Positions 13,943-63,823 of a stretch of 64,000 bases of DNA are shown here, one piece after another; positions within the stretch are counted from its first letter, which is position 1, and every line of letters starts with the position of its first letter. A model generated the notes under the pieces. The model searched no databases. It had not been told where the DNA came from and worked only from the letters and a program-made list of their open reading frames with translations. The translations under genes and the position numbers were made by a program. The DNA is from an uncultured virus (IMG/VR IMGVR_UViG_3300006920_000039) (lineage: Duplodnaviria > Heunggongvirae > Uroviricota > Caudoviricetes > Schitoviridae), in the IMG/VR virus record IMGVR_UViG_3300006920_000039, one strand, 5' to 3'.

Positions 13943-16900
13943 ATGGTTTCCCCCTATTTTTCTGCGAATCCTGTGAGGAATTCCATGGCCGAAGTACCAG
14001 GCGTAAACCCCATCAACTCCGCATTCGACAAGATACTGGGGGAAGCCGGAATTGCTCCTGCTCCAAATATCACACCTGTGGCCCCCAATCAGCCGGGTGA
14101 CCTCGCATCGGAGACGCTTCGTCGCTTAGGCGCAAAGCCATCGGACAAGCAGAACAAGGTCAACGAGGTCTCCCGGGCCAAGCAGATTGTACTGGGCGGG
14201 CCGGATGCCCAACGTGATATTGCCGCGGCAGAACGAGGTGGGAACACTCTTTCAGAAGATCCGGTTGTACGTGATTTGCAGGACATGGACTTCGGTTCTC
14301 TGGTTCAAAAGTACGGCGAAGATGTTGCCCGGAACCGTTACAAACTGATCGAGGAAAAGCAGCGCTTCAATTCAAGCCTGGATGCTGGACGAACTGCTGA
14401 ACAACGTATCGGAGATACCCTCCTTGATGTTGGTTCCGGAGCAGCGGCAGCTGTCGGTGGTGTTGCAGGACTTGCGGTCGGTGCTGTGAATGAAAACGCT
14501 GGTACAGCGATCTCCCAAGGTGCGTCTTCATTGAGCCAGAGCCTGAAAGGGTTTCAGTCCAGTGAATTGAGTGAGCGAAGAGAGTCTTTCGGACGCCTCC
14601 AGAACCAAGACTCGGTCGATTCAAACAAGATCTATGACGCAATAGATGAGCCCACCATGACTGACGTTCTGGGAAAGTTCGGTCGGGACGTGGGGAATAC
14701 CTTTGCAAATATGGCCCAAGATCCGGCAATGGCGGGATCACTGGTCGGTGAGTCTGCTGGCTCCTTTGCGGTGCCACTGGCTCTTGGAAAGCTGGGGAGC
14801 CGTGTGGCTCCGACACTCTCACAAGGTGCTGTAACGACTGGCGCCATTGGTCTGACTGAATCTGGGGGCGTGTACTCACAGGCTGTCAACGAAGTCATGG
14901 GCATGAGCGAAGATGAGCTGTCTGTTGCCAGCGAAGCCTACAAAGAGATGCGCCGGCAAGGGGACACTCACGAAGAGGCACAACGAGGTGTCGCCAACGA
15001 TGCTGGTTTGCTGGGTGCTGCAGTGCAACTCCCTCTCGCAATCGTGGCTGGTAAAGCGGTTTCCCGTTTCCAGGCAAATCCTCTCAAGACAACTTCCTTG
15101 ACCCGGAGTTTGCAGGACATCGGCAAAGAGACGTTGGAAGAAGGTTTCCAGTCTGGAACCGGTGAACTGACGACTGACCTTGGTGTAAAGACCCAAGCTG
15201 ATAAATTCCGCCAAGTCGGTGACACGGTTGGTGAAGCTGTGGCCATGGGTGCCGTCGGTGGTGCTGGTATGGCTGCCACTTTGCAAGCGCCGGGACTTCT
15301 TCGTGACGGTGTCGTGGCAGGGGCAAAAGGAACTGTCAGAGCAGCTGGACGAGCTATTGATGGCCGGGTCCAAAGCATTGCAGCTGCTCAGGATGCCGCT
15401 TCTCCAGTTGGATCAGTGGCTCGAACTGAAGCAGTTGAAACAGCCAAGACAAGCCTAGCAGCGGTTGTTCAGAGCGAACCTATAGTTGCTGAAAGTGTCG
15501 AGACTGTAGAGGCAGAGACTGCCCAGAAGTCTCCTATGCAACGTGCCAAGGAAGCTTTGGTCATGACCGGGCCCGAGGTGAACGAGACACCTGATGCCGT
15601 GAAGCGATTGATAGCAGGCGAGGGGGAAGTGATCCCTGATGACCTGCAGGTCGATCGATTGGATGTGCTGTCAGGACTGCTGACTGAGATCGAGTCTGGA
15701 AACCAGTCCGCACAAGACACCGAGGCTGCGTCTCTCTGGCTCTATGAGCAGGCAAAAGCATTTGAGGCCCTGCGCAACGAGGACATGTCCAGCCTGCCTG
15801 CAGAGATCCAGGAGATGGCTGCTGCAAGCCAGGCTGCCGTGGATACGATACTGGCGAACCCGACACTGCAAAAGGCTGTAGAGCAAGCACAGAGCGCATC
15901 TTTCGAACCTGGCTCCCTGCCGGAGATAACCGACAGGAACATCAACAGCCCTGAGGTCAAGGATGCCTTGGCCCGGACCATTCAGATAGCCCAGTCGAAC
16001 CCTGCCGGCATTGATCCGAAGTTCGTTGATTCCATTCTGGATCAGCGCAGCAAGGGCAAGATCCAGTTCTCAGACAAGGTCATGAAACGTCTGGAAGCAG
16101 CGGCCGCTATCGCCAAAGAAGCCAACGCAGCTTCTGAAAAGAAGGAAGCCATGGTCGCCGAGACCACAGCTGTGATCCAAGCCCAACCAACGGGTGCGGG
16201 TAAACAGGCCCGAAAGACTGTCGACATCGTGCGCCGCGAAATCCTCACTGAAGGTAAAGACGATGAGGCTGGACAGATCGGCTTGTCCCGCCACCTTTCA
16301 GGCATCGTGACATCGCTGAACAATGGCGATCAACTCATGGCACAGCTTGCACTGGATAACCTCCGGAACTTTGGCGAGCACATGCAGAACAAAGTGAAGG
16401 CAGCCAGAGAGTCGTTTGCGCTTGGGAAATCCAAGAACAACACTGTGCCTTATCGCACATGGACTGGAGTTGCCTGGATTGAGGCCAACAAGGACAATGC
16501 AGGCAAGATAGGGATCAACGCAAACTCCCCGAATTCGATTCAGCTGGGAAAAGAAGCAGCGATCGACGCAGAGACTGTGTCCAATCTCTACAACAATCTG
16601 ATCACGATCTACGGCAGTGAGTTGACTGGTCAGGCTTTGCCACCGTTGCGTGAAGCTACACCGGCCCCTGCAGTTCAGGAAAATACCGAGAATGTAGCGG
16701 ACCCTGTTGAGGTTACTCCAGTAGAGACAACCGAGGTTGTGGATCAGATTGAGCCTGAAACGATTGTCAACGAAGCCGAGCCTGATGCGCTGGAGCTGGC
16801 CGACAACGAGACACGGACACAAGCTGACTTCGATGCGATGACCGATGACCAGTTACTGACTTCGGTTAATGGCTGGGAAGCTGACGTTGAGAGCCTGCCA

Positions 16901-19900
16901 ATGATCCCTCAGAGGGTTCAACAGGTGCGGGACGTAGTGAACCCTATCCTCGAAAGGTTCAATCTCGCCCCCTCACTTATTCGTCGGATAGCCTGGCTCG
17001 AGTCGCCAGAAAAAGATCATCTGGGTCAAGCTTACTGGACCGAGCGGGTGCTCTCTTTGAAGCCGTCTGTCTTGAAGAAGATGATTGCGGGTGTCGACAA
17101 AGATGGGATTCACGTTGCGTATCACGAGCTGATGCACATGATTGATGCGGCGGCCTCAAAGACCTTCGGCCGCACAGCATCCATGGAACAAAACGAGCTG
17201 ATGGTGGGTGGCAAAATACACGCAGAAGTCCTGGGACTTGTTGAATCAGACCCGGAAATGGCCGAGTATTTTGAATACGCTCTGGGTCAGGAAGACCCTG
17301 CAATTCTGGCTTCGGAACTCTTCGCTGAGATCGGCGCCCTAATGTTGCTCATCGACGCTGATGTAGCAAAAACACTGATGCCTAAAGGAGTAGCTTACGT
17401 TGAAGAAACCATCGGACAAGCCGGAGGAAAAATCCCTGCCGTCGAAGAAGCTGATGCGGGAACCAGTGCACCCGTCATCGAAGATACCCAAGGGCTTCCT
17501 GGAGAGACTGAGGAAGCTGCCACCCAAGAAGTAGTCCAAACTCAGGAGCAGCAGAATGTCGCAGTATCTGTCGAAGTCGGAGCAGAAAGCGAACAAGAGG
17601 TTGTTTCTCAGGAAATTACAGGAGAACAAATTGCTGAGGAAAGCGTCACGGAGAGCGTGTCGCAAAGCACTCCGGACCAAGATGAAGCGGGAACTGAACC
17701 AGCAAGTGACTCTGTCATTGCTGAACCCGGAAGAAGCCTCAGCTTTGATAACCTAGCCAAGACAGCCAAAGGCGTCGTTCGTTTCGTGCGGGCCTACACA
17801 GTCGACACCAAGAAGTCTCTGTTGATGCAAAGTGATAACCCGGCCCGGGGTGTTCTAGAGCTCCTTGGTTCCTACGAGACGTACCGGGATCAGCTGGCGC
17901 TGAACTACCGGATGGACCAAGACCAAATCAAAGCCTGGAACACGCTCATCGAACGCCAAGTCGGTGGCTTGGTCAATCGCATGAATGCGTCTCTGAAAAC
18001 CAAGAAGAAAGCTCTCAGCAGTGGAAAGCTGACACCGCTGGAAGCTCTGGCGCAAGACAAGGACTACACAGGCTTCCGTGAAACACGGGCCCTCAACTTG
18101 GTTGATCCAGAAGCAGAGGTGTACGATCCACGTTTGATCCAGGCAGCAGCACTGGCCGCCTTGCATTGGACGATGAACACATCCGGCAGCCGGAACAACT
18201 CTGCGGAGGAGGTCGCCAAGATATTTGGTGTCGAAGAAGACGCCGTGACACCAGGAATGATGCACGCTGCCAACTCTGGTCTGGGTGCAAATACTGCTGC
18301 TGAATCTCTCGCCAGAACCATCCGGGAATTCTGGGGTGTAACCACCAACAAAGATGCCCCTATGTCGGATACTTTGGGGATATCTCAGGCAATCGCTGCT
18401 GAACTGCTATCAGTCATGGACGGGCACTTGGTGACCAAGTCCACCTTCGAGCTTGAAATAGCCGAAACAGGCGTCACAGCAGATGCTATTTTCATTCAGC
18501 TGACGAACGAAACTTCTGCAGAGGTCATCGAGCAGCTGAAGGGAACACGTATGTTCCTGCAGGATGCGTTTCTCCCAGAAGCTGAGCGTGCGTTCTACTT
18601 TGATCAGACACCGGACGCTGTTCGCAAGAGCCAGAAGAACAACCCACTCGGCAAGCTTGGTGCGAAGATGACCAAGGCTCTGAGGCGGCACCAGGATATC
18701 GCGTTCATGCGGAACACGCCGTATCTCAATATGATGCAGGCGATCGGCCGGGAGACCTTTGGTGAGCTGATGGGCAAGCGGGTAATTGAAGAGACCCGGA
18801 TGAACAAAGTCGACGTGGTTTCGATCCAAGGCAAGAATAACTCTGTCGACTATTCCTGGAATGGAGTGGAAAGCCATAATGCTCAGCTGGAGGGCTATGC
18901 CGACAGAGAAGGCAAGAACCCCGACGAGGTAGAGACACACTTCGATTGGTATGTGGTCTCAAACGAACGTATCCATGCTGATGGCTTTAACCCCCAGTCG
19001 GACAAGACAATGCGGGAAGCTTTCGTCGCCACGGTATCGACGCTTGATATGACGACGGAGAAGGGCAGGGAGCTGTTCTGGCTCACTGTGGCCCAGTCCT
19101 CTGATCTGGTGAAGACAGAGAAAGAAGCCCGGGCCGACGGTATCGACATTGTCCAGGAGAAGATCTTCGAGAAATTCGGTGACTCGATCACTGTGATGGA
19201 GGAGTTCCTGGAAGCCGGAGGCGAGTTGAGCCAAGCCCAAAAAGACGTCCTTCTGGGTGAACTTGGCGGCGAAGGCACACCGAAAATCCTGCACGCCATT
19301 CTTTCAGTTGCCCAATATAACCTGGCTGTAGCGGAAGGTGGAGAAGCCCTGACAAGCTTCAAGCACAACCTCTCCCTCGAGGCAGACGGTAAAACCGACG
19401 GCCCGATCAATGCGATGATCCACTTCCTGACTGGGAAGTTTGATGCGTCACAGCTTTTGAACATGGCTAAGGGCGGGTTTTACCCCAACGAGCAGGGCAA
19501 GACCCTGAACGAATACATCAAAGGCGACAGCGTCGATCTGTACGAGACAGCGGCTGTGCTGTTCCAGAACGAACTTGCTAAGGTCCAGAAAAGTGTCATG
19601 GGGACAAAAGCCCAAGGGCACATGACGGCCGTAAACAACATCATGAACTACCTGATCAAAGACGCCAGCTTCAACGAGAAGGGCGAGTTGGTCATTGGGC
19701 GGGGCATCCTGAAGAACCCACTGACGGTGACCGTTTATGGCTCTGGAGTCAAAGGCATAGCCAACAAAGTTACTTCTGCGGTAACAGAGGTCCTGTACCA
19801 GAAGATGACCGAGCTGGAGCAGATGCGTGTCGATCTGGCAGACCCAAGCCTGCAGTTGTCGGACGTCCCAAGCCTGCAGAATTATCCCACACTGGCTAAA

Positions 19901-22900
19901 GACCTGACGATGTTGACCACAACCCGTGTGGGCAAGTCTCGCAAAGGGGGCAAAACCGAATGGTATGTCACTGACAAGGACTTCGATAAGAAGCGCCACC
20001 CTCTGGGGGACATCAACGATGGCGTCAATTTTCAGCTGAGCCGTGGAAATATGGCGATGCTGTCGACGAACCTGCAGAACCTGTTTGTGTCACCAATGAA
20101 CGCGGCCATTAAACAGATGATGGGCGGGACCCAGTCCACACTTGAAGTCTTCCAGAAGGCTACACAGGCTCAGTCTTTGATCCTGATCACGCGCTTCGAC
20201 AATGCCGTGCAAGAAGTCCTCAAAGAGAAGCGGGAAAAGGGTGAGCTGGGCGGCGCCGACTTCATGAGTGAGAATGATTATCAAGCTGTGTTCGACAAGA
20301 TGGCCAAGTTCGGGGCCGTGATCGCTCCGATCCAGAATGATGAGCACCACCTGAACCTCTCGAACAAAGCAGCATCGAAGTCGCAAGATGAATTCTTCCG
20401 GAGCATGGATAACGAATATTCCGGAAATGCAACGATCCCACGTCCAGCAGAAGCAGGCGTAAAAGTCTCTGCTCTTCTGACGATCTCCCGGGGTGACGCA
20501 AAGATGATGGTGAATTACTTCGCCAAGGAATCTCTGGATCCAACAGCACTGAAAACTCTACCTGTCTTTGACGGTCTGGAGATGCCTGCCGACGGCATCG
20601 ACACACTTTCAGCGTTGATCAACGAAGCCGTCTCTGATGCTTGGCTGGAAAACCCAGCACAGGATATGTCCGACAGCTTCACTGACTTTATGCGCCAGGA
20701 AAAAGACGGGCCATTGAAAGGGCTCGAGAGAAACAGCGAACTCTTGGGGGCACTCGTCAAGCTTCTTGGTGTGGACATCGGGGTCGGGGATCCGATCTCA
20801 GATATTACTGAGGAAATGGCGGGCATAAACGAGCGCATCGCTATCATTGCCCAGTCCATCCAGGCTCGAAAGAACGTCTACAAGCGGATCGGTTACTCGA
20901 TCGATCACATGGCATCTGGTGAGAACCCATTCTCGAAAGAGGGTGAGGTCATTGAAGGTGATCTCGTCGAGGGAATGAACCTGATGTATGACGAGGAGCT
21001 GGCAAAACTTAAGTCCGAAAAAGACATACAAACTTCGGACAGCGCCATTGAAAAACCTCTCCGGAAGTTCCGGGACCGCATTCGTGAAGTCGGCACAGAG
21101 GTCGGCGATGACGGACCTGGTCTGGTCAAAATGGATGTCGAAGGTGTGCGTGTTCTGATGAACAGCGACCTGACCAGCAAAGATAATCTGGTCTTGGTCA
21201 AGGCTGTGGCAGACGCCATGCCGGGATTCACCTTCTTCTTTGGTTCCTCCAAGAAGTTGACGGCTTTTCGGAATAAGAATTTCCCTGAGCGCAAAGGCTC
21301 CGGCGACATTCAGAACGGTCAGATAGACCTGCTGAACGGGGTGATCTACATCTCGAACCAGGCAGGCGAAACTGTCCTGCATGAGATGCTGCACGCTGCT
21401 TTGAGCAAGCAACTGCTGCAGTTCTACGATGATCCTTCACAGATGACTGAGACACAGCGGGCTGCCATTCAGAATCTGGAAAGCCTGATGGCCCAGTTCC
21501 AGACGATGGATTTCGCTGTTGATGGTCTGGAGACCAAAGAAGCAGCAGAGCTGGTGCAGGCTGAGATCACCAAATACCAAGGACAAGGCGGTGTGATTGG
21601 GAACGCTTCAGCGATGAACGAGTTCATTGCTTGGACACTGACGAACCAGAACCTGATCAATGCACTCCGTACGGCGCGGGTCCGTACACCTTTGCAGAAA
21701 CTGGTGGATGCCAGCCTGAAAGGTCTGCGGAAGTTGCTCGGCCTGTCCCCACAACAGTCCTTGGATATCTTCTCGAACATCGCCTTCAATACTGGAGCAT
21801 TGCTGGTATCTAACGACGTATCGTCAGGGGAGACTGCGACACCCCCGGGATTACTCCTCAATCAGGTCTCGGGCAAAACCTCAGACAGTCGCTTAAGAGG
21901 AATGATGTATGCCTTTGATCGCAAGATCGCATCGCACCTGAAAACAAGGGACCCGCTGAAGGTTGATTCGGAAGAACTGAAGATCACTGATCTGGCCAAC
22001 CATGCAGCAAACACCTTCATGAGTGCCGGGTTTGATATGGATGCCGAGCAGCTCTCAGCTTTCCGGAACATTCAGGCTGCCATGGCGTCGACGATGGAGT
22101 TCGACAACAAAGCACTGGTGCGTATCCAGAAGATCTTCGCCCACGTCACCAAGCAGTTGACGGTCGAGAGCTTCATGGACGAGCCCGATCTGAATGGTCA
22201 GCAAGATCGTTATACGGCGCAGCAGAAGTTCAACGTGCTCACTGGTAAATACGGCGTGGAGACAGATCTCGAGGGCCGCTCGAACCTGCTGGCTTCTTTC
22301 CTGGCTCTGAGCCAGGTGGACCCGCAGTTCCGGGAGACTCTTCGGATTCTAGCATTGCCAAAAGACCGGAATGTCTCATTCGATTCAATGGACGAGTTCC
22401 TTGAGTCAGCAGCAGACAGCGTTCTGAATACTTTGGCAACGTCGATCGCCGGAGAGGGACTTGGAAACAAGAGCACCCTGCTTTCTCTGGATCGCCTGAC
22501 GGCAGTTCTTTCTAAGATCGAAGCTGATGATCACACATTGGTGGAGAAGAAGTCACAGGCCCTGCTGAGCCAGGGAGACGCAGCCGGAGCTGGTTTCCTA
22601 TCGACCATTGGTGAGCGCCTTGGGGATTTCGCAGATGCCAAGACCCTGAAGGACCGAGCTGAGGGTCGCAGCAAGAACCGGGAAGTTCTGTGGGGGAGTG
22701 CTAGAATTCTCGCCTCGGCGGTAAATGCCAACAAAGGCAAAGCAATGGCCAATGCGACGGTCAGCCTCTTGAACGAGACCAAGAACATTCCTCGTGTCGT
22801 GTTGGAATTGATCAACGAAACCATCGGACAAACCGACGAGAACAAAGTCGTCTACGAGATGATCAACCGGGTGAAGTACGCGGTTTCAGGAATGCGTCAG

Positions 22901-25228
22901 GATTTCAGGGAGACACTGCCGCGGATTCTCACGGAGCAGTTCAGCCGCAAACTCACGAAGACAGAGTGGAGCCAGCTTCATATGGCTCTGGGTAAAACCG
23001 ACATCGCTGCTTTGGGGGAGACGTACACTGCTGAGCAGATCCGCAAGATTATCAATGATCCAGCTTATATGACCGAGGAGATCGAGAAGGCTGAGACTGA
23101 GGTCAGAAGCCAAGCTCCTAAGGTTGCCGACGATTACATCAGAAAAGCCCAAGAGCTTGCGGAGTTCATGATCAGCGGCAAGATCGCCTCGAACAACAAC
23201 AATCTGCTGCGGAATGCGGAAGCAATCTCGCGTCTGTTGGGAGAGGACAAGAAGGGAATGGTCACGACCAAGGCATCCATTGATGCAATTGATCGCCTGA
23301 CCACTCTGTACGCTGTGGCCAATCTGGAAAATGATACTCTGGTGGCAGTCAATAAGCTGTCAGCGACCGAAGCTGCCGGCATGGATTTCGTGACATATTA
23401 TCTGGCTGACCTTCGCCGGAACGAAGTCAAGAAGCAGTCGACGGATGCCGCAAGGCTGAACGGCTACAAAGGATACATCCCAAGCGAGAGCCGTGAAGGT
23501 GCCACGATGATGGTTGCCGATGACACTGAGTTCAATCGTCTAAAGTCTCTGGGATATACCCGTCTCGGCGATTACCAGGGATCGGGCTTTGAAGCAGGCA
23601 AGAAGGGCTATTACTTCTCCACCGTAGCGGGCAACAATCAGTACATGCAGGGAGCTCTCCAGACTGTGCAGATCTCGGCCATGGGTGTTGATCCAAGGAC
23701 CGGCCGCACTGTGACGGGTAAAACTGCAGGTCGTTTGGCAAATTCGGAAGTCGGGAATGTAAAACGGCGCCTGAAAGCAGGCCAGGGAGCTCGCAGGAGC
23801 TTCGGTGAGGCATTGATGCCAATCTATGACTCAACGGGCGAGGTCGTAGGCTACGAGCGTTCCATGGACCCAGATAAGATTGCCAGCCTTGATCCAAACA
23901 CCAGAGCCGATGAGATGATCGGTGCCTGGGCAGGACGTCAGGCTGAGGAAGAGCTTGCGCAAGAGTTCAACTTCATGCTGATCGACCGGGTCAAGGAGGT
24001 CTACGACCGTGACAGACGTCAGGGCCGCAAAGACGAATTCGTAAACCTGGCTGACCAGCAGAACTCAGACCCCGTTATCCGGGATGCCTGGAAGCTGGTT
24101 CCAATCGAAAGTCGTGAGTACATCGAGGATATTTTTGGCGAGGGTAATTTCCCTGTGCGCCGTGACATGCTGAACAATACAATCGGCTATCGTGAAGCCT
24201 CTATTGGGGATGCCTGGGTTGGGTTGTCTCGTCTGGATCCAAAGTCTCAGAAGCTGTTGACCGATACCATGACAGCTATCCTAGGACAGAACGCTTACAA
24301 GTACCTGAAAACAGCAGAGACCGCATGGCAAGCCGGTGTCTCGGTGGCAAAGAACACCATCGTGATCCGATCGGTGATTGTGCCTATCTCGAACATGGGC
24401 TCGAACTTCATGCAGCTCTTGGTGAATGGGGTTTCTCCTCGGGACATCCACAAGGGGATGACCACAAAGCTGGTGGAGATTGACCAGCATCTGAAGAACC
24501 TTAGCCGGGGTGTTGAGATCAAAGCCAACCTGGCTCGCTTCAGGGGCAACGACACCGAGACGCGGAAGCTGAAGACAGAGCTAAAATCACTGGAGGATTC
24601 CAGCAGGCGTATGTCTATCTGGCCTCTCATTGAAGCTGGTGAGTTCTCGACTATCTCCGAGGGCCTGACGGAAGCTGACGCTGCCATTGGCCAAGGTAAA
24701 TGGGTCGAGTGGATCCAAGAGAAAGCAGACAAGCTGCCGTCTAAATTGGGCACTGCCGGCCGCTATGCTGTCATCTCCCGGGACACAGCCTTGTTCAAGG
24801 GAATGGCTCGTGCAGTCCAGTATGGTGACTTCCTGGGCAAAGCAGTTTTGTACGATCATGTTAAGAAAAATGGAAAAGCCTCACATGAACAGGCGCTGGA
24901 GAAGATCACTGAGGAATTTGTGAACTACAACCTGCTGCCGGGTCGGACCCGCTCATATGCTGAGAGCATGGGCCTGACGTGGTTCTGGGCGTATAAGATC
25001 AGATCGATCAAGATTGCCCATCGTCATATTGTGAACAACCCATTGAGGGCTCTTCTGACGACATTGGGCGCTCCGATGTTGCCCGACATGCCAGGCATGT
25101 CTATGGGCTCTCCGATCACGGATAACGCATTGTCTGTGATAGCTGATGACCGTCTTGGGTATTCCGTCGGTCCTGGAATGTTGTTCAATGCGCCAGGTTT
25201 GAACCCTTGGGTCAACCTGACGAACTGA
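13943..25228 (+). CDS. Virion-encapsidated RNA polymerase (N4 gp50-like), 3761 aa
   Basis: T7-like motifs FNPQSDKTMRE, LEADGKTDGPINA (A), RGILKNPLTVTVYGSG (B), TLPVFDG (C); size and position. Confidence 0.97.
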   Translation: MVSPYFSANPVRNSMAEVPGVNPINSAFDKILGEAGIAPAPNITPVAPNQPGDLASETLRRLGAKPSDKQNKVNEVSRAKQIVLGGPDAQRDIAAAERGGNTLSEDPVVRDLQDMDFGSLVQKYGEDVARNRYKLIEEKQRFNSSLDAGRTAEQRIGDTLLDVGSGAAAAVGGVAGLAVGAVNENAGTAISQGASSLSQSLKGFQSSELSERRESFGRLQNQDSVDSNKIYDAIDEPTMTDVLGKFGRDVGNTFANMAQDPAMAGSLVGESAGSFAVPLALGKLGSRVAPTLSQGAVTTGAIGLTESGGVYSQAVNEVMGMSEDELSVASEAYKEMRRQGDTHEEAQRGVANDAGLLGAAVQLPLAIVAGKAVSRFQANPLKTTSLTRSLQDIGKETLEEGFQSGTGELTTDLGVKTQADKFRQVGDTVGEAVAMGAVGGAGMAATLQAPGLLRDGVVAGAKGTVRAAGRAIDGRVQSIAAAQDAASPVGSVARTEAVETAKTSLAAVVQSEPIVAESVETVEAETAQKSPMQRAKEALVMTGPEVNETPDAVKRLIAGEGEVIPDDLQVDRLDVLSGLLTEIESGNQSAQDTEAASLWLYEQAKAFEALRNEDMSSLPAEIQEMAAASQAAVDTILANPTLQKAVEQAQSASFEPGSLPEITDRNINSPEVKDALARTIQIAQSNPAGIDPKFVDSILDQRSKGKIQFSDKVMKRLEAAAAIAKEANAASEKKEAMVAETTAVIQAQPTGAGKQARKTVDIVRREILTEGKDDEAGQIGLSRHLSGIVTSLNNGDQLMAQLALDNLRNFGEHMQNKVKAARESFALGKSKNNTVPYRTWTGVAWIEANKDNAGKIGINANSPNSIQLGKEAAIDAETVSNLYNNLITIYGSELTGQALPPLREATPAPAVQENTENVADPVEVTPVETTEVVDQIEPETIVNEAEPDALELADNETRTQADFDAMTDDQLLTSVNGWEADVESLPMIPQRVQQVRDVVNPILERFNLAPSLIRRIAWLESPEKDHLGQAYWTERVLSLKPSVLKKMIAGVDKDGIHVAYHELMHMIDAAASKTFGRTASMEQNELMVGGKIHAEVLGLVESDPEMAEYFEYALGQEDPAILASELFAEIGALMLLIDADVAKTLMPKGVAYVEETIGQAGGKIPAVEEADAGTSAPVIEDTQGLPGETEEAATQEVVQTQEQQNVAVSVEVGAESEQEVVSQEITGEQIAEESVTESVSQSTPDQDEAGTEPASDSVIAEPGRSLSFDNLAKTAKGVVRFVRAYTVDTKKSLLMQSDNPARGVLELLGSYETYRDQLALNYRMDQDQIKAWNTLIERQVGGLVNRMNASLKTKKKALSSGKLTPLEALAQDKDYTGFRETRALNLVDPEAEVYDPRLIQAAALAALHWTMNTSGSRNNSAEEVAKIFGVEEDAVTPGMMHAANSGLGANTAAESLARTIREFWGVTTNKDAPMSDTLGISQAIAAELLSVMDGHLVTKSTFELEIAETGVTADAIFIQLTNETSAEVIEQLKGTRMFLQDAFLPEAERAFYFDQTPDAVRKSQKNNPLGKLGAKMTKALRRHQDIAFMRNTPYLNMMQAIGRETFGELMGKRVIEETRMNKVDVVSIQGKNNSVDYSWNGVESHNAQLEGYADREGKNPDEVETHFDWYVVSNERIHADGFNPQSDKTMREAFVATVSTLDMTTEKGRELFWLTVAQSSDLVKTEKEARADGIDIVQEKIFEKFGDSITVMEEFLEAGGELSQAQKDVLLGELGGEGTPKILHAILSVAQYNLAVAEGGEALTSFKHNLSLEADGKTDGPINAMIHFLTGKFDASQLLNMAKGGFYPNEQGKTLNEYIKGDSVDLYETAAVLFQNELAKVQKSVMGTKAQGHMTAVNNIMNYLIKDASFNEKGELVIGRGILKNPLTVTVYGSGVKGIANKVTSAVTEVLYQKMTELEQMRVDLADPSLQLSDVPSLQNYPTLAKDLTMLTTTRVGKSRKGGKTEWYVTDKDFDKKRHPLGDINDGVNFQLSRGNMAMLSTNLQNLFVSPMNAAIKQMMGGTQSTLEVFQKATQAQSLILITRFDNAVQEVLKEKREKGELGGADFMSENDYQAVFDKMAKFGAVIAPIQNDEHHLNLSNKAASKSQDEFFRSMDNEYSGNATIPRPAEAGVKVSALLTISRGDAKMMVNYFAKESLDPTALKTLPVFDGLEMPADGIDTLSALINEAVSDAWLENPAQDMSDSFTDFMRQEKDGPLKGLERNSELLGALVKLLGVDIGVGDPISDITEEMAGINERIAIIAQSIQARKNVYKRIGYSIDHMASGENPFSKEGEVIEGDLVEGMNLMYDEELAKLKSEKDIQTSDSAIEKPLRKFRDRIREVGTEVGDDGPGLVKMDVEGVRVLMNSDLTSKDNLVLVKAVADAMPGFTFFFGSSKKLTAFRNKNFPERKGSGDIQNGQIDLLNGVIYISNQAGETVLHEMLHAALSKQLLQFYDDPSQMTETQRAAIQNLESLMAQFQTMDFAVDGLETKEAAELVQAEITKYQGQGGVIGNASAMNEFIAWTLTNQNLINALRTARVRTPLQKLVDASLKGLRKLLGLSPQQSLDIFSNIAFNTGALLVSNDVSSGETATPPGLLLNQVSGKTSDSRLRGMMYAFDRKIASHLKTRDPLKVDSEELKITDLANHAANTFMSAGFDMDAEQLSAFRNIQAAMASTMEFDNKALVRIQKIFAHVTKQLTVESFMDEPDLNGQQDRYTAQQKFNVLTGKYGVETDLEGRSNLLASFLALSQVDPQFRETLRILALPKDRNVSFDSMDEFLESAADSVLNTLATSIAGEGLGNKSTLLSLDRLTAVLSKIEADDHTLVEKKSQALLSQGDAAGAGFLSTIGERLGDFADAKTLKDRAEGRSKNREVLWGSARILASAVNANKGKAMANATVSLLNETKNIPRVVLELINETIGQTDENKVVYEMINRVKYAVSGMRQDFRETLPRILTEQFSRKLTKTEWSQLHMALGKTDIAALGETYTAEQIRKIINDPAYMTEEIEKAETEVRSQAPKVADDYIRKAQELAEFMISGKIASNNNNLLRNAEAISRLLGEDKKGMVTTKASIDAIDRLTTLYAVANLENDTLVAVNKLSATEAAGMDFVTYYLADLRRNEVKKQSTDAARLNGYKGYIPSESREGATMMVADDTEFNRLKSLGYTRLGDYQGSGFEAGKKGYYFSTVAGNNQYMQGALQTVQISAMGVDPRTGRTVTGKTAGRLANSEVGNVKRRLKAGQGARRSFGEALMPIYDSTGEVVGYERSMDPDKIASLDPNTRADEMIGAWAGRQAEEELAQEFNFMLIDRVKEVYDRDRRQGRKDEFVNLADQQNSDPVIRDAWKLVPIESREYIEDIFGEGNFPVRRDMLNNTIGYREASIGDAWVGLSRLDPKSQKLLTDTMTAILGQNAYKYLKTAETAWQAGVSVAKNTIVIRSVIVPISNMGSNFMQLLVNGVSPRDIHKGMTTKLVEIDQHLKNLSRGVEIKANLARFRGNDTETRKLKTELKSLEDSSRRMSIWPLIEAGEFSTISEGLTEADAAIGQGKWVEWIQEKADKLPSKLGTAGRYAVISRDTALFKGMARAVQYGDFLGKAVLYDHVKKNGKASHEQALEKITEEFVNYNLLPGRTRSYAESMGLTWFWAYKIRSIKIAHRHIVNNPLRALLTTLGAPMLPDMPGMSMGSPITDNALSVIADDRLGYSVGPGMLFNAPGLNPWVNLTN

Positions 25229-36152: not shown

Positions 36153-37460
36153 TTAAAAGAGGCGATCTGGAAGCTGGCCAAACAAGAACAGACGTGTGGT
36201 TGCACGAGAGGCACCGACGTAGAGCATCCGTGCCAGCTGATCTTCCTTGGTGCATTTGCCGATGTTGCCGAGATCCAGGAACACGGACTTGTAGGTGCTG
36301 CCCTGGGCCTTGTAGACGGTGGCCGCATCCTTCTGACGAAGGTCAGGGAAGTTGTTCTTGAGGAAGTAGAATTTCGTCCAGTCTTTGATCCTGGCGAAGT
36401 GCTTCATCATCGCTTTGTAGTGATCCGTATTGGACGGGATCATCACGGAGATGGGGGAACCACCAGGTGTGCTAAGTTCGACCCGATAGACATCGATCGT
36501 GGCGTTAGGGTCTGTGGCATCGAGAGAATGGGGTGCAGGCGTAGAGAGAACCTTGTTGACTGTGAGTTCCTGCTCAACACGCAGAAAGGTTTTGCCGAGC
36601 TGGATGCCGGAGTTGTTGATCAGGACTTCACCCTCGGTGAACAGATCAGGGTAACCCCTTAGATTTCGGACATAGTCGTTATACTCTTGGACCCGGGCAT
36701 TGGTGTAACAGAGCATCCGGCAGCCAGGGTTCTCGACTTTGAATGTGGTGTCGATGAACTGCTGAGCGGACGGGCCGTCGAGATAATCGATGACACCAGG
36801 AACCGATGGGAGCTGGAAGAACTTCCCAGTTTCGACGGTGTTGCGGAGACGTGCGCACAGATCAACGAGGGCAGGCTGGCCCGCATTCCTCATTGGTTCC
36901 GTCAGATTGACGAAGTTCTTGGGGTGCTTGTAGACCGGGGAGATGGTCTCAAAGACCGGTGCCATCTGGCAGTGGTCACCCAGATAGATGATTTTGCAGC
37001 TGGAATCTGTGCCGAGCAAGATGAAGTCATGCAGCTTGGTGTCGATCATCGAGGCTTCGTCAACGAAGATGAGCTGGTTCTTATGCACTTTCCAGGAGTT
37101 GGTCCGGGTGATCGAAGAGACACCTGTGGTGTAGTTGTCCACGACCTTCAGGTTCATGAAGCTGTGGACTGTCGTGGCAGGGAAGCCCGTAGCTACGCTG
37201 AGGACTTCGACTGCTTTGTTAGTCGTGGCAGTGAGAGCTACCTCATAGTCGATGGGCGTTTGCCCAAGAAGCTTGGAGGCGTTTGTGTACTCCTGGATCA
37301 CGGTTTTCATGATGTGGTTCATCAAGAAGGTTTTGCCGGTGCCAGCAGGACCGGAGACAATGAACTCTTTGTCGTCTGAGAACAGGAACTGGAATATGCC
37401 AGCGACGGCTTTTTGTTGATCTGAGTTCAGACTTGGGACGATTGGGGCAGAATGTAGCAT
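36153..37460 (-). CDS. Dda/RecD-like SF1B DNA helicase (N4 gp37-like)
   Basis: GPAGTGKT, DEASM, LGDHCQMAPV, TVYKAQGSTY, YVGASRA. Confidence 0.93.
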   Translation of the reverse strand: MLHSAPIVPSLNSDQQKAVAGIFQFLFSDDKEFIVSGPAGTGKTFLMNHIMKTVIQEYTNASKLLGQTPIDYEVALTATTNKAVEVLSVATGFPATTVHSFMNLKVVDNYTTGVSSITRTNSWKVHKNQLIFVDEASMIDTKLHDFILLGTDSSCKIIYLGDHCQMAPVFETISPVYKHPKNFVNLTEPMRNAGQPALVDLCARLRNTVETGKFFQLPSVPGVIDYLDGPSAQQFIDTTFKVENPGCRMLCYTNARVQEYNDYVRNLRGYPDLFTEGEVLINNSGIQLGKTFLRVEQELTVNKVLSTPAPHSLDATDPNATIDVYRVELSTPGGSPISVMIPSNTDHYKAMMKHFARIKDWTKFYFLKNNFPDLRQKDAATVYKAQGSTYKSVFLDLGNIGKCTKEDQLARMLYVGASRATTRLFLFGQLPDRLF

Positions 37461-37494: not shown

Positions 37495-37707
37495 TCAAAT
37501 TGTGGTTCGGCTGGCTCCGGCTGAGGATTTCATCTTGAGTTCGTGGTCTTCCCGGCAGACAGAATCGCAGTAGCGACGTTCACTGACGGGTTCGCCGCAG
37601 GAGAGGCACGACCCAGAAAAGGGAATGGAGAGGGTTTTGCGATTATGCAGAGAGAGGCTGATATGCTTCTCTGTGATGTCTTGGGCTATGTCGCCAAAGT
37701 CTGCCAT
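37495..37707 (-). CDS. TraR/DksA-like C4 zinc-finger protein
   Basis: N-terminal DxxDxA (MADFGDIA), CLSC...YCDSVC; 70 aa; AAGGA RBS. Confidence 0.7.
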   Translation of the reverse strand: MADFGDIAQDITEKHISLSLHNRKTLSIPFSGSCLSCGEPVSERRYCDSVCREDHELKMKSSAGASRTTI

Positions 37708-37821
37708 GGATTTATCCTTGTTAATTCTGCTTGATCTTTGGCAGATAACAAGATGATCCGAAGAAAAGATAGTCCTAATCAACCAATTCTATTTATCTAG
37801 ATTGGGATCAGTGTGTTTCAC

Positions 37822-37853
37822 AAAAAAAGACCCCCGAGAGAAACTCTCGGAGG
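37822..37853 (-). terminator. Rho-independent terminator after the H-NS-like gene
   Basis: CCGAGAG/CTCTCGG stem with a T7 run on the minus strand. Confidence 0.75.
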
Positions 37854-37881
37854 CCGACCTTGCACAAAGTGCGGTCGAAAA

Positions 37882-38199
37882 TTAAGCGCCTGGGATACGA
37901 AGCTTTTCGGGGTCGTTAGCTTCTGTGAACCAGGTAGGAGCGTCGCCTTTGCCAGACCAGGTCTGACGAGGGTTCGCTGGGTTGCGGTAGATGGCGGGGG
38001 CCTTACCGCGTTTAGCTGTAACACGAATTGCTGCAACGACTTCATCGAAGCCGAGCTCAAATTCAGTAACGAGACTCTGTATTTTATTCAGAGCATCACG
38101 CTTTTTGGCATCCAAGCGTTTGTCAACGAATGACTTCAGCTTGGACTGCATATTAACAAGTTCCTCGAGGGATAAATCTTTAAAATCATTGGGTTGCAT
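37882..38199 (-). CDS. hns: H-NS family protein (HvrA/Spb-like), variant DNA-binding motif
   Basis: N-terminal coiled coil (DLSLEEL), C-terminal YRNPANPRQTWSGKGDAPTW. Confidence 0.88.
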   Translation of the reverse strand: MQPNDFKDLSLEELVNMQSKLKSFVDKRLDAKKRDALNKIQSLVTEFELGFDEVVAAIRVTAKRGKAPAIYRNPANPRQTWSGKGDAPTWFTEANDPEKLRIPGA

Positions 38200-38200
38200 C

Positions 38201-38695
38201 TTAAATCCTTCCCGTAAATTTAGCCAAGTCCGGTGGGTAGTAACCCGGGCCCTTCATGATCTTCATCTGATCGTTGAAAATTGGTTTGCCGTTTGCACCA
38301 AACTTAGAATCATTTGAGCAAGCGACCTCATTTAGCGCACCTTCGATGTCCATGCCAAGCATGTGAGCTACGCCCACAGACGTGACAATTTGATCGGCGA
38401 GTGCATCGAGTAGCGCAGTGCGGTCGAGATCCTGTAGGGCGATCTCTGCACCTCCGGTGTAGGCTTTGAGTTGGCGTTGGGTGAAGTCGACAACATCGAC
38501 ACACAGACCAAGCTGTTCTCGTACAGGAAATGTAGATCCTGCATCACGAAGAGTTTCTAGCATCTCTCCGACTTCTTCCATATGCACACCAAGCTGGGCG
38601 TGAATATTCTTCGCGTTTGGTTTTGGAACCGCAGATTCAAACCAAGACTTGATCTGGCGGATAGTGGATAATGATTGGGACTGATTAACGCTCAT
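38201..38695 (-). CDS. MazG-like nucleoside triphosphate pyrophosphohydrolase
   Basis: EEVGEM...LLDALAD...EVACSNDSKF...KIMKGPGY. Confidence 0.85.
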   Translation of the reverse strand: MSVNQSQSLSTIRQIKSWFESAVPKPNAKNIHAQLGVHMEEVGEMLETLRDAGSTFPVREQLGLCVDVVDFTQRQLKAYTGGAEIALQDLDRTALLDALADQIVTSVGVAHMLGMDIEGALNEVACSNDSKFGANGKPIFNDQMKIMKGPGYYPPDLAKFTGRI

Positions 38696-38839
38696 AAAAT
38701 CACCGGTCGGTTGTTCATTATTTTGTACGATCAATGGATCAGGTTCGAAACAATGCAAAGGTTTGAATGTGGTTGTCAAGTAGGAGTTACAAAGAAATAT
38801 CAAATTGATAATGGGGGAAGAGGAGCCAAAAAGATCGCG

Positions 38840-38863
38840 GGGACCCGATTGGGACCCGCTTCG
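38840..38863. repeat. Left arm-type integrase binding repeats
   Basis: GGGACCCG at 38840 and 38851. Confidence 0.7.
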
Positions 38864-38940: not shown

Positions 38941-38988
38941 GCCCTCCGAAGGCAGAGGCCGGGCGTTCGAATCGCCCCGGGTGCACCA
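38941..38988 (+). mobile_element. attP core: 3' portion of tRNA-Arg(CCG)
   Basis: GCCCT-CCG-AAGGCAGAGGCCGGGCGTTCGAATCGCCCCGGGTGCACCA contains the anticodon loop, T arm, acceptor 3' strand and CCA; no 5' half upstream; 63 bp from the integrase stop. Confidence 0.9.
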
Positions 38989-39051: not shown

Positions 39052-40149
39052 TCATTTTCGCCTGTTCAGGGCCGCTACAGCGGTCTTCTGATGGTCTGGA
39101 GAGTGGTGTCCGTAGACCTTTTGTATCGTCTCAATGGATGTGGAAAAGTAACCAGCTGTGTCCCAAGTGGTGGCGCCATTCTGGAGAGCCCAGGTGATTG
39201 CTGTGTGCTTGAGAGTGTGTGGAGTAACACCATCGAAGTTGATTTTGATGCCTTTGGCGGCCGCTAATTCAATAGCTATTTGGGTAGCGTTGGCCCATCC
39301 TTTTCGGATGTCACCGATCTGATGACCCTTGTGATCTTGGACGATCATTCGGCGATTGTTCTTAGATTGTATGCGTAAATAAGAGAGATACCTTGGGGGA
39401 AGACGTGCCGGTCTCTGCCGCTTTGCGGTCTCGAGTTTGCCCTGCGGCTTTCGATAGAGAACTCCGGTCTTTGTGTCGACATGCCCTCCGCTTTTGCTGG
39501 GGGTGTCTATGCGCATGGAGAGAATCGTCTGTTTTCGGCTGCCAGTATAGAGACCATGCAGGATGAACTGGGCCAGGTGCCGGCCGTCCGCCCTGAGATT
39601 CCTGGCTCCCTTCAGAAGCCATGCCGCCTCTTGACGAGTTAGCCAGCGCTCTTTGGGAGAAGGCGACGCAGGGAGTGTGACTTTGGGTGGTGTTACGAGA
39701 TAGCCCTCAGCGTGGCAGTAATTGAGAGCAGCCTGGAGAACATTCAGCTCTCGTCTGGTGGTGCCGGGTGAGGCGACAACACCGAAACGGGTCTTTCTAG
39801 AGCTGGAATACTTCCGGCATGTAGCACCAGTGATTATGGAAACTGGCTGGTCTCCCCAGAAACTATCCAAAGCATCAATTGCATACCCGATCCGTGCGGG
39901 ATCAGCGACATGAACTGCATGTTCTTTGGCGTAGATATCTAGGGCCCGGGAGATGGTGAGTTCTTGTGGGCCAACCGGAGTATTCGGTTGGTATTTCAGG
40001 TCGAGATACCTTGCTAGAGCTTCTTCAGCATCTTCGCGGATGTGCGTACCTGTCGATACTCGGGTCGTTCCGTCACGTATCTGCCAGTAGGGCTGCCGCC
40101 CTGAAACGGCTCTCCAAACGAGACGGGCGCTTTTTCTTTTTGCCGGCAT
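39052..40149 (-). CDS. int: Tyrosine recombinase (phage integrase)
   Basis: LYTGSRK (box I Arg), TPHTLKHTAITW (box II), VYGH (catalytic Tyr); adjacent to a tRNA-derived att site. Confidence 0.93.
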   Translation of the reverse strand: MPAKRKSARLVWRAVSGRQPYWQIRDGTTRVSTGTHIREDAEEALARYLDLKYQPNTPVGPQELTISRALDIYAKEHAVHVADPARIGYAIDALDSFWGDQPVSIITGATCRKYSSSRKTRFGVVASPGTTRRELNVLQAALNYCHAEGYLVTPPKVTLPASPSPKERWLTRQEAAWLLKGARNLRADGRHLAQFILHGLYTGSRKQTILSMRIDTPSKSGGHVDTKTGVLYRKPQGKLETAKRQRPARLPPRYLSYLRIQSKNNRRMIVQDHKGHQIGDIRKGWANATQIAIELAAAKGIKINFDGVTPHTLKHTAITWALQNGATTWDTAGYFSTSIETIQKVYGHHSPDHQKTAVAALNRRK

Positions 40150-40307
40150 AATTCCATCAGCTTTTGAACATCACTCTCGAGCAGACGGAAGTTCCGCCCA
40201 ATTCGTATGGTGAAGCCGTGTTCATCCGCTACCTTACGGAGGCTGTCAACGGAAACACCGAGATGCCTGGCCACAGATGTGAACTTGTGAACGACTGGAA
40301 GTGCCAT
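40014..40307 (-). CDS. xis: Excisionase-like HTH protein
   Basis: SVARHLGVSVDSLRK HTH plus IRIGRNFRL wing; AGGAG RBS; overlaps the int 5' end. Confidence 0.7.
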   Translation of the reverse strand: MALPVVHKFTSVARHLGVSVDSLRKVADEHGFTIRIGRNFRLLESDVQKLMELCRQKEKAPVSFGEPFQGGSPTGRYVTERPEYRQVRTSAKMLKKL

Positions 40308-40311
40308 CAGA

Positions 40312-40599
40312 TCAGCTCCTTGCCTGGGCTTTTTCGTGAGCAGCCCATGCAGCATCCCGGTTGTTTTCCGGTGTTACTTTCTGGTTCTCAATGTGGCTGC
40401 GAGAAGCCGCACCACGGATGTTGTTAACCTCGACACGGGATTTCTCTGCGATGTCATGGATCAAACCAATCTCATCACGTCGAATCCACAGCCGGGGCAG
40501 TGGGATGTACCCAGCCTTACGCAGAGCGTAAGCAACTGGGTTCTTTGCTTGCATTTCAGAATCGATCACGGTGGGTTCCTCGTTAAATGTAGGGAGCAA
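40312..40599 (-). CDS. Hypothetical protein
   Basis: 95-aa ORF filling the gap upstream of xis; start uncertain. Confidence 0.55.
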   Translation of the reverse strand: MLPTFNEEPTVIDSEMQAKNPVAYALRKAGYIPLPRLWIRRDEIGLIHDIAEKSRVEVNNIRGAASRSHIENQKVTPENNRDAAWAAHEKAQARS

Positions 40600-62622: not shown

Positions 62623-63111
62623 GTGCTTAAACCTATTCTAGAAGCATGGTCCTCAATGATCGTCCGTCGTTGGCACGCGCACGATGTCATGAGCAACACC
62701 ACTGATCTGACTGGAGCACACGCCTCACGGGTCTGTGTTCTGGCTCTACGGCTAAATCCAAAGCTGTCACGACGGGGGATAATCTACGCACTCACCCACG
62801 ACATCGGTGAGAAGAGAGCAGGGGATTTCCCCTACACATTCAAGCGGGACAACCCAGAAACAGCTGCCAAGTTGGGTGTCTATGAAGAGCAAGTCGCAGC
62901 TGAACTAGGGTTTGGCTGGGGCGATCTGGATCCGACAGAGAAGCAGCTGGTGGGCATGTGTGACTGGATCGATTCCTACCTATGGGCGGCGCTCCACTAC
63001 CCCCACATCGTGAACGAGGAGGCTTGGATAAACCAACGGGCAGTCTGCCAACTCACAGCGTCAAAGCTGGGTTTGCGTGATGAAATCAAGACCCTGATGA
63101 GGCGCCCATGA
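62623..63111 (+). CDS. HD-domain (YfbR-like) deoxynucleotide phosphohydrolase
   Basis: VRRWH, GAHASRV, LTHDIGE...GDFP, CDWID. Confidence 0.8.
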   Translation: MLKPILEAWSSMIVRRWHAHDVMSNTTDLTGAHASRVCVLALRLNPKLSRRGIIYALTHDIGEKRAGDFPYTFKRDNPETAAKLGVYEEQVAAELGFGWGDLDPTEKQLVGMCDWIDSYLWAALHYPHIVNEEAWINQRAVCQLTASKLGLRDEIKTLMRRP

Positions 63112-63473
63112 AAGACCTTCCAGACATGAACGTTGAAGGCGCCAAGCTGGATAACGGCAAGGTCCGGATGGATCTACTCCCACCTGAACTCCTGTTCGCC
63201 GTGAGCGAGATCCTGACATTCGGAGCCGAAAAATACAGCGACCGGAACTGGGAACTCGGCATGAAGTGGGGCCGGGTATTCGGCGCCATGATGCGACACA
63301 TGTGGGCTTGGTGGGGAGGCAAGAACCCTACAACCCGCAGCTTCCTATTCGGGTCTTATGACAACGAAACCGAATGCTCGCACCTGTGGCACGCTGGCTG
63401 CTGCCTCGCATTTCTCATTGCTTACGAAGAGCGCGGTGTCGGTGAAGACGACCGCATGAAAGGCCCACAATGA
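63108..63473 (+). CDS. dATP/dGTP diphosphohydrolase-like protein (DUF5664)
   Basis: GAKLDNGKVRMDLLP, FGAEKYSDRNW, AMMRH, HLWHAGCCLAFL. Confidence 0.85.
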   Translation: MKDLPDMNVEGAKLDNGKVRMDLLPPELLFAVSEILTFGAEKYSDRNWELGMKWGRVFGAMMRHMWAWWGGKNPTTRSFLFGSYDNETECSHLWHAGCCLAFLIAYEERGVGEDDRMKGPQ

Positions 63474-63823
63474 TGATCCCGACAAGTCAGATCGCAGAAG
63501 TCGCCCATGAAGTTAATCGGGCCTTCTGTGTAACGATTGGCGACATGAGCCAGCCAGCTTGGGCAGATGCTCCAGAGTGGCAAAAGGTCAGCGCCATTTT
63601 GGGTGTTGAGGCGATTATCAACAAGCCGGAAATGACGCCAAAAGATAGCCATCTGAGCTGGCTTGCCCACAAACTGAAAGAGGGTTGGCGCATGGGTAAA
63701 TCCAAAGACCCATACAAAAAGGAGCACCCTTGTATGGTCCCATACGAGATGCTGCCGGACGACCAGAAGCACAAAGATCTGCTTTATACACGGGTCGTCA
63801 ACACCATGTTGGCAATGCAGTAA
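63470..63823 (+). CDS. RyR-domain-like phage protein
   Basis: IAEVAHEVNRA, HLSWLAHKLKEGW, KEHPCMVPYEMLP...KD. Confidence 0.75.
   Translation: MMIPTSQIAEVAHEVNRAFCVTIGDMSQPAWADAPEWQKVSAILGVEAIINKPEMTPKDSHLSWLAHKLKEGWRMGKSKDPYKKEHPCMVPYEMLPDDQKHKDLLYTRVVNTMLAMQ

Follow-up and report, generated by a model that had tools for sequence, protein, structure and literature searches.

What does an H-NS protein do once the arginine that its relatives insert into the minor groove has given way to an acid? The gene that raises this question lies at 37882..38199 on the minus strand of a 64,000-nt stretch of DNA from an uncultured virus; we refer to this whole stretch as the window. A first-pass annotation had read its product as a phage H-NS homologue with the core motif TWSGKGDAPTW, which may act as a dominant-negative antagonist of host H-NS or else have altered specificity. 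The homology was borne out: the 105-aa ORF scores 34.3 bits against Pfam PF00816 (cut-off 25.6) and aligns over its whole length with canonical short H-NS proteins (profile-profile probability 99.9%, 105 columns). The AlphaFold2 model (mean pLDDT 88.9) has a long helix at residues ~11-46, a short one at ~51-61, a linker and a small C-terminal domain. Thus the N-terminal oligomerisation helix was rightly described as retained, on the strength of the predicted model and the profile match, and it is followed by a basic linker of net charge +4. The closest sequence match in the PDB was 2L92 (E = 0.046). Fold searches with the full model against pdb and pdb_via_wide gave no significant match (in pdb_via_wide, generic helices only, residues 1-51), nor did a search of pdb with a single-sequence model of the small C-terminal domain (pLDDT 65.7). 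An ESM Atlas search returned H-NS clusters only, with scores below 0.9.

The hook codons K84-G85-D86 occupy 37942..37950 on the minus strand, and the Asp codon is GAC at 37942-37944, as first described. The identical protein was found on 7 contigs. One IMG/VR locus (L005), whose source sample is possibly shared with the window, encodes the identical protein and is 99.96% identical over 20,315 nt, and a contig from sequencing run X7 (study P5, not flagged as a possible source) covers 37870-38093 at depth 2.7 with 0 differences. A sequencing error at this codon, raised earlier as a way in which the idea could fail, is therefore ruled out.

The window protein thus carries KGD in place of the Q/R-G-R AT-hook-like motif. 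A first homologue search returned 82 proteins, of which 47 had KGE, 20 had KGD and 0 had Arg at hook position 3. Because this search shares words with its query, two controls were used. In a word-free phmmer search, a sharp step separated 10 clusters at E < 1e-15 from canonical proteins; nine of these belong to what we call the KG(E/D) clade, and the tenth (P0089) is a canonical three-domain protein that was excluded from both the clade and the outside tallies. In a hook-blind search, the queries were the N-terminal domains alone of 15 clade genes; the 33 proteins obtained (18 of them new) had an acidic hook in 28 cases, Lys in 1 and Arg in 0. A search with the N-terminal region of P0001 alone matched nothing besides P0001. 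When the sets are pooled, an acidic residue occupies hook position 3 in 90 of 108 clade proteins, compared with 1 of 157 motifs among 140 proteins outside the clade, so that the acidic hook is the mark of a clade and not a one-off. The acid is held in 83% of the clade across divergent sequences, and the 18 exceptions carry P, V, A, Q, K, N, T, H or R, with Arg in a single protein. The Arg-to-Asp change of the first-pass annotation therefore stands in that the groove-inserting arginine is gone, and needs amending in that the change is neither private to the window protein nor confined to one residue.

In a quick tree of 90 rows and 109 columns, which included 41 of 121 canonical candidates and resolved the clade but not its inner order, the 40 clade rows grouped together (SH-aLRT 93), separate from host H-NS and from an RGKE group of other N4-like phages. 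An RGR-bearing protein (P0091) was placed inside the clade. Outside it, P0097 also has an acidic hook (EGD), so the change arose at least twice. Judged by its motif, the clade protein would not be classed as a canonical xenogeneic silencer in the functional sense. In the literature covered, which lay largely outside subscription papers and supplements, nothing was found on H-NS proteins with an acidic hook or on H-NS genes of temperate N4-like phages; the supplements of PMC10654107 and PMC8476142 could include such genes or motifs. The clade is thus a real variant of the H-NS family that appears not to have been described before and that is associated with temperate N4-like phages.

Loss of the hook arginine might simply have left a dead DNA-binding domain, so the rest of the surface matters. 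We compared 84 clade proteins with 110 canonical ones. Three canonical basic positions are lost: position 70, K or R in 90/110 canonical proteins, is I, L, V or M in the clade; hook position 3, R or K in 97/110, is E in 50 and D in 21 of the 84; and position 87, canonically K, R or Q, is A or P. Four basic residues are fixed, R59 in 82/84 and R64, K66 and R78 in 84/84 each. In the hook-blind set all four are kept in 33/33 proteins, and position 70 is basic in 0/33. The codons for R59 to K66 (38002..38025, minus strand; R59, R64 and K66 clade-fixed) together with that for R78 (37966-37968, minus strand) would encode a candidate replacement DNA contact. We provisionally equate R64 and K66 with H-NS R90 or MvaT R80, by residue numbering and not by structural overlay. 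A single linker length is shared by 80 of 81 clade proteins; in the canonical set lengths are spread. Net charge of the core falls from +3.39 in canonical proteins to +1.75 in the clade, and that of the whole protein is +3.75 (n = 84) against +3.18 (n = 110).

Constraint is greatest in the C-terminal domain, where 16 of 34 positions are at least 95% conserved within the clade, against 3 of 50 in the N-terminal domain. For 15 clade genes pN/pS was 0.18 in the C-terminal core and 0.51 in the N-terminal domain; only this ranking counts, because pS is saturated (~0.73-0.76) and the genes were retrieved with C-terminal patterns. With R59, R64, K66 and R78 kept, no change in overall charge and the strongest conservation in the core, the C-terminal domain appears rebuilt and not dead. 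At position 86 the acid is preferred and not required, because 18 of 108 proteins differ and the arginines stay fixed there. For the same reason, pairing of the acid with the fixed arginines is not favoured.

The N-terminal domain bears on whether the protein meets host H-NS. Each of the 4 host genomes checked has one or more PF00816 proteins of its own, with the canonical RGR hook in those that were translated. Identity of the clade N-terminal domain to host H-NS is 19-29% (21-28% for pairs from the same genome), against 47-75% among the host paralogues themselves. A predicted complex between the clade N-terminal domain A4, from the prophage of a Rhodobacterales MAG (G002), and the co-resident host protein A3 scored 0.00 against a mark of 0.32, with the controls unfolded, and so speaks neither for nor against pairing.

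The element that carries the gene is a temperate N4-like phage. The window encodes a 3761-aa virion RNA polymerase (13943..25228, plus strand), the marker of N4-like phages, together with RNAP II subunits, DNA polymerase, primase, SSB, portal and capsid. It also encodes a tyrosine integrase (39052..40149, minus strand) and an HTH_17/excisionase-like protein with weak scores (40014..40355, minus strand). An attP-like core formed by the 3' half of tRNA-Arg(CCG) (38941..38988, plus strand) lies between the integrase and a MazG-like gene and is surrounded by GGGACCC repeats at 38840, 38851, 39025 and 39037. Along the minus strand the order is xis-like HTH gene, integrase, tRNA-Arg half, MazG-like gene, hns, terminator, DksA-like gene and Dda helicase, with 740 bp between hns and the tRNA-Arg half. 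No integration joint was seen in 4 runs, so the window copy is the unintegrated (free) form. The earlier statement that the gene would lie near a prophage end is thus correct for the window by inference from the position of the tRNA half. Among 301 genomes of the order of the Rhodobacterales MAG, the att core had 1 match, an intact tRNA-Arg with 2 mismatches in G028, and no PF00816 match was found in that genome (2.9 Mb, possibly incomplete). The window has a GC content of 52.6%, against 61.5% around this best-matching host tRNA locus. Apart from this, GATC occurs 482 times in window positions 1-64000 (~250 expected from length alone) and GANTC 129 times, and no methyltransferase was found among the window ORFs scanned. 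Near the window end, a dATP/dGTP diphosphohydrolase gene (63108-63473) is followed by a RyR-domain gene (63470-63823). Diphosphohydrolases of this kind can go with modified-base systems.

A relative shows the integrated arrangement directly. Contig C39 of a Gemmobacter MAG (G003; loci L002 and L143) holds a complete N4-like prophage of ~77 kb in tRNA-Trp with both att ends (912-77728): a tRNA-Trp half at 912-944, the clade gene at 3471-3803, virion RNA polymerase near 31 kb, and the integrase and intact tRNA-Trp at the far end, at 77 kb. The clade gene lies ~2.5 kb inside one att end, which demonstrates its position close to a prophage end in this relative. The prophage also carries a DUF3800 gene as extra cargo (L002:997-2331), placed between att and the MazG-hns unit.

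Clade loci are rare. We found 4 in 185,579 species genomes, 2 among IMG/VR contigs and 14 among metagenome contigs. With 4 loci in 185,579 species genomes, and the seed genome standing alone among 401 of its class, a chromosomal core-gene origin is ruled out. N4-type MazG and/or DksA-Dda neighbours were present at 15 of the 20 loci, some of which are near-duplicates. An integrase lies within the available stretch at 5/20 (the window phage, L004, L015, L018 and L021), and a tRNA half marks the boundary at four more (L001, L002, L006 and L008); most of the remaining loci are shorter than 4.5 kb. The clade thus occurs mainly in integrase- or att-bearing N4-like phages and prophages. The integrases beside clade genes are unrelated to each other, and the MazG-like gene is missing at L003, L014 and L021. 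A search of 50,697 named phage records gave no clade-level match, only three hits at 28-29%. Among 12 MazG-anchored viral loci, hns was nearby in the window phage only. Loci sought with one protein at a time (Dda, DksA-like protein or integrase) were almost entirely those of the same phage or of unrelated contexts.

Some loci depart from this layout. In L006 (9968-10168) the 3' half of a tRNA-Arg abuts the C-terminal half of a KGE-type hns. This locus lacks the MazG-like gene as well as the N-terminal half of hns, and the 73.9-kb record yielded no integrase. A deletion between attP and a similar site within hns seems to have produced this structure. In L004 and L021, clade members with KGK and KGH hooks sit in non-N4 integrative islands with an Arm-DNA-bind_3 integrase, and L004 further has a divergent MazG-like gene immediately upstream, a UvrD-PDDEXK fusion and a DNA methylase. 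The KGK island form is present in a cultured bacterium, Albidovulum sediminicola WL0075. A viral contig (L007:7688-10261) encodes an 857-aa ParB fused to a C-terminal H-NS domain with the hook KGL.

The gene's surroundings suggest when it is expressed. The MazG-like nucleotide pyrophosphohydrolase gene (38201..38695, minus strand; presumed ATG start, longest ORF from 38803) ends 1 nt ahead of the hns ATG, and the two are probably co-transcribed. Upstream is a candidate host sigma-70-type promoter (38750..38779, minus strand), with a -35 box TTGACA at 38779-38774, a weak -10 after 18 nt and AT-rich DNA upstream. A strict consensus promoter scan found no promoter, and the call is inferred from positional conservation: a TTGAC box precedes the MazG-like gene in 11/11 N4-type loci, mostly 82-90 nt before the start, and in 0/2 divergent loci. 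Only the spacing is persuasive, because the chance rate of TTGAC is 3-17% per 130-nt segment and 390 nt were searched; these sets also hold near-duplicate loci (L001/L002 and L010/L011).

Directly downstream of the candidate promoter lies an operator-like, near-perfect 12-bp palindrome (38729..38740). It recurs 39-41 nt after the -35 start in 6/11 loci, with 0-1 mismatch in the window, L009, L010, L011 and L013 and 2 in L018, and is missing in L001, L002, L008, L015 and L017. No other site in the 64-kb window matches it with fewer than 2 mismatches; when up to 2 are allowed, the window has 4 sites against 4.4 by chance. Its sequence differs from the GGGACCC repeats that flank the att core. Among the 102 window ORFs, Pfam showed no CI-type repressor family; a repressor could sit in the ~11 kb of the 75-kb genome outside the window, or belong to a family missing from Pfam.

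At the other end of the unit, the claim that hns has its own terminator was upheld. An intrinsic terminator with a 12-bp stem and T7 lies at 37829..37855 (minus strand), and the 66-nt region 3' of hns folds at z = -4.85; a second small hairpin (37856-37880) sits between the hns stop and the terminator stem. By eye, a similar hairpin and T-run follow the gene in 9 of 11 aligned loci and are missing in L004 and L021. The terminator would insulate the downstream genes for a DksA/TraR-like zinc-finger protein (37495..37782, minus strand, its true start probably later than that of the longest ORF), Dda-like helicase (36153..37460, minus strand) and DNA polymerase.

The Dda-like helicase is the synteny anchor of the hns slot in N4-like phages, and H-NS genes in this slot are not confined to the clade. 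They were present at 8 of 80 Dda-anchored loci (the window phage, the phage of L006, L071, L075, L079 and L088-L090). Agrobacterium phage OLIVR1 has gp040, annotated "H-NS histone family protein", between NTP pyrophosphohydrolase and helicase, and Ochrobactrum phage ZX86 has an unannotated H-NS gene immediately upstream of the helicase. Hooks in these other phages are RGK (OLIVR1), RGR (ZX86), KGR (L071) and RGK (L075, L079 and L089, in each followed by Glu). One of four unnamed N4-like records with non-clade H-NS had a Phage_integrase match. Apparently lytic N4-like phages also have an H-NS gene at this position, so lysogeny was not what the gene arose for. A second kind of N4-like phage H-NS carries a long acidic low-complexity N-terminal extension (L075:5261-5860, L079:5365-5850, L089:5217-5777, L137:2806-3357 and L138:2162-2800), which could serve as a DNA mimic or an autoinhibitory tail.

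Our preferred reading, held tentatively and at somewhat less than even chances, is that the clade protein is a self-oligomerising regulator expressed in the lysogen, which would bind DNA through the K84-G85 loop and the fixed linker Arg/Lys and act on phage promoters. The promoter-MazG-hns-terminator unit beside att would be read by host RNA polymerase and therefore be on in the lysogen, where it would form the first operon at one prophage end. The protein would oligomerise through its own N-terminal helices, mostly with itself. The loop and linker residues would replace the RGR hook in a manner resembling the MvaT pincer, with lower affinity than host H-NS or a different site preference. The acid at position 86, which immediately precedes the short C-terminal helix, may be a consequence of this side chain leaving the groove. 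The likeliest job would be that of an element-private silencer or modulator of phage promoters used by host polymerase, its own promoter possibly among the targets, at the palindrome; the N4-like prophage would be kept quiet without takeover of the host H-NS regulon. The clade H-NS may in this way help to run the dormant prophage state. Against this reading, the lost hook Arg is an essential contact in Ler, and an acid beside the loop should repel phosphate. A stronger proposal appears improbable to us, namely that linker and loop, with no need for host H-NS, recognise the palindromic operator and sites like it and make the protein a site-selective lysogeny regulator that replaces a CI-type repressor.

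The chief alternative to a lysogen-expressed regulator is the dominant-negative one, which we regard as unlikely yet as the most serious rival. The protein would join host H-NS filaments by its N-terminal helices and, with a weak or non-binding C-terminal domain, act as a spacer that loosens silencing of the AT-richer phage DNA. Several observations suit it: the loss of three basic positions including the groove arginine, the retained N-terminal architecture, the phage-borne gene beside att, the RGR proteins of the hosts and the lower GC content of the phage. The available text of PMC3219716 reports that Ler R90Q/G abolishes DNA binding and R90K binds poorly, and that H-NS R114G loses much of its DNA binding; PMC8476142 likewise gives Q/RGR to AGA as abolishing binding. 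Precedents in the accessible portions of other papers are truncated H-NST, which antagonises H-NS (PMC7074111, PMC6936261), and phages that attack H-NS/MvaT (PMC6936261). However, conservation is higher in the C-terminal core and linker than in the N-terminal domain, where a decoy should show the opposite pattern; there are four fixed basic residues and no change in net charge, and N-terminal identity to co-resident host H-NS is far below that among host proteins. H-NST, as described in the text available, simply lacks the DNA-binding domain. Counter-silencing is described as inducing the CgpS prophage (PMC5137423, PMC7074111, in part), which is awkward for a gene placed for expression in the lysogen. 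Of the two branches proposed at the outset, altered specificity therefore fits the evidence best and the H-NST-like branch is less supported; a new way of binding DNA is more likely for the clade protein than the part of a broken decoy.

It is rather doubtful that the protein is a near-ordinary, weakened H-NS, in which non-specific binding through the basic linker compacts or protects phage DNA and KG(E/D) is a minor founder change. H-NS R114G retains residual binding (PMC3219716) and linker charges drive H-NS binding (PMC7544231, PMC6936261), according to the portions of these papers available; position 86 tolerates other residues, and other N4-like phages have basic-hook H-NS in the same slot. 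Yet non-specific linker binding needs neither invariant residues nor a fixed length, and canonical linkers vary in both, while the clade has kept its acid across divergent sequences. Least probable is that the C-terminal domain is now a protein- or RNA-binding module with DNA binding secondary or lost (example partners being a protein of phage replication or recombination, the RNA polymerase of the host, or anti-H-NS proteins made by superinfecting phages): a near-invariant surface stripped of its known DNA contacts is the expected product of a new fixed partner, and hns shows tight linkage to the MazG-like gene and to att, but the newly fixed residues are all basic, which suits nucleic acid, and no partner is indicated, with unrelated integrases alongside and some loci without the MazG-like gene.

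To our knowledge, the third hook arginine is regarded as near-universal in H-NS proteins. A natural clade without it, in which other basic residues are fixed, is a ready test of how the H-NS fold reads DNA. We found no account in the literature of how N4-like lysogeny is controlled, and the promoter-MazG-hns-terminator unit at a prophage end is a concrete candidate, with the Gemmobacter prophage displaying the arrangement in the integrated state. Were the protein a site-selective regulator, it would add a third DNA-reading mode to the hook and pincer of the H-NS fold, and would give a mechanism by which a phage dependent on a virion-packaged RNA polymerase maintains and leaves lysogeny. A dominant-negative role would make it a conserved, full-length anti-silencer from a phage, directed at alphaproteobacterial H-NS; were it merely a weakened H-NS, the finding would be minor.

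Among known systems, the clade is closest in build to the short H-NS proteins of the Bv3F/HvrA type (PF00816, RGR hook; PDB 2L92), HvrA being, as we assume, the name for the rhodobacterial proteins. Size, long and short N-terminal helices, basic linker and the TWxGxG.xPxW core are common to both. Unlike these proteins, the clade has E or D as third hook residue, has lost the K before the conserved Tyr and the K/R/Q after the hook, and has an invariant fixed-length linker and a fixed R78. MvaT is the precedent for an H-NS-like fold that binds DNA without Q/RGR: in the available text of PMC8476142 this AT-pincer uses a KG-GN loop and the upstream R80, which gives a groove contact. The analogy is loose, because the MvaT loop, as defined there, is one residue shorter and has Asn; KG-GN is absent from the window protein (SGKGD), and the clade loop SGKG(E/D) has the canonical H-NS length. 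For H-NS itself, simulations described in the accessible part of PMC11796372 place linker R90 in the minor groove.

Other mobile elements encode H-NS-like proteins of their own. On IncX plasmids, Sfx represses transfer genes of its own element through an altered hook and linker (PMC11796372) and HppX belongs to a plasmid H-NS clade with a divergent hook (PMC7544231); like the clade they are element-encoded, with divergent hook and linker serving control of the element's own genes, as far as these papers were available. Prophage-encoded CgpS silences its own prophage (PMC5137423, available text), and shares with the clade a prophage location that serves control of the element's own genes. Unlike the clade, Sfx keeps an RGR hook and CgpS is an actinobacterial, Lsr2-like protein, and the accessible descriptions of Sfx/HppX and CgpS mention no acidic hook. 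H-NST of E. coli islands resembles the clade in being on a mobile element and in keeping N-terminal helices without a canonical DNA-binding hook; in the clade the DNA-binding domain that H-NST wholly lacks is present and is the most conserved part. Phage-encoded H-NS is already known, including H-NS genes in N4-like phages such as that annotated in OLIVR1. The EPV1 H-NS was likewise found in metagenomes (PMC3097231, Skennerton 2011, text available), where its function was proposed but untested; it is closest to the H-NS of its host and was proposed to repress host defence genes, whereas clade proteins show little similarity to host H-NS. A 2023 report describes lysogenic N4-like genomes, with lysogeny inferred from the genomes; its main text, supplements apart, has 0 mentions of H-NS in the portion available (PMC10654107). 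The nearest relatives by context are the H-NS genes of other N4-like phages (OLIVR1, ZX86, L071, L075, L079 and L089), which share the slot between NTP pyrophosphohydrolase, where present, and Dda helicase and, in OLIVR1, a terminator-like hairpin 3' of the gene; unlike the clade, they have basic hooks and mostly long acidic N-terminal extensions, and their RGKE group forms a separate branch.
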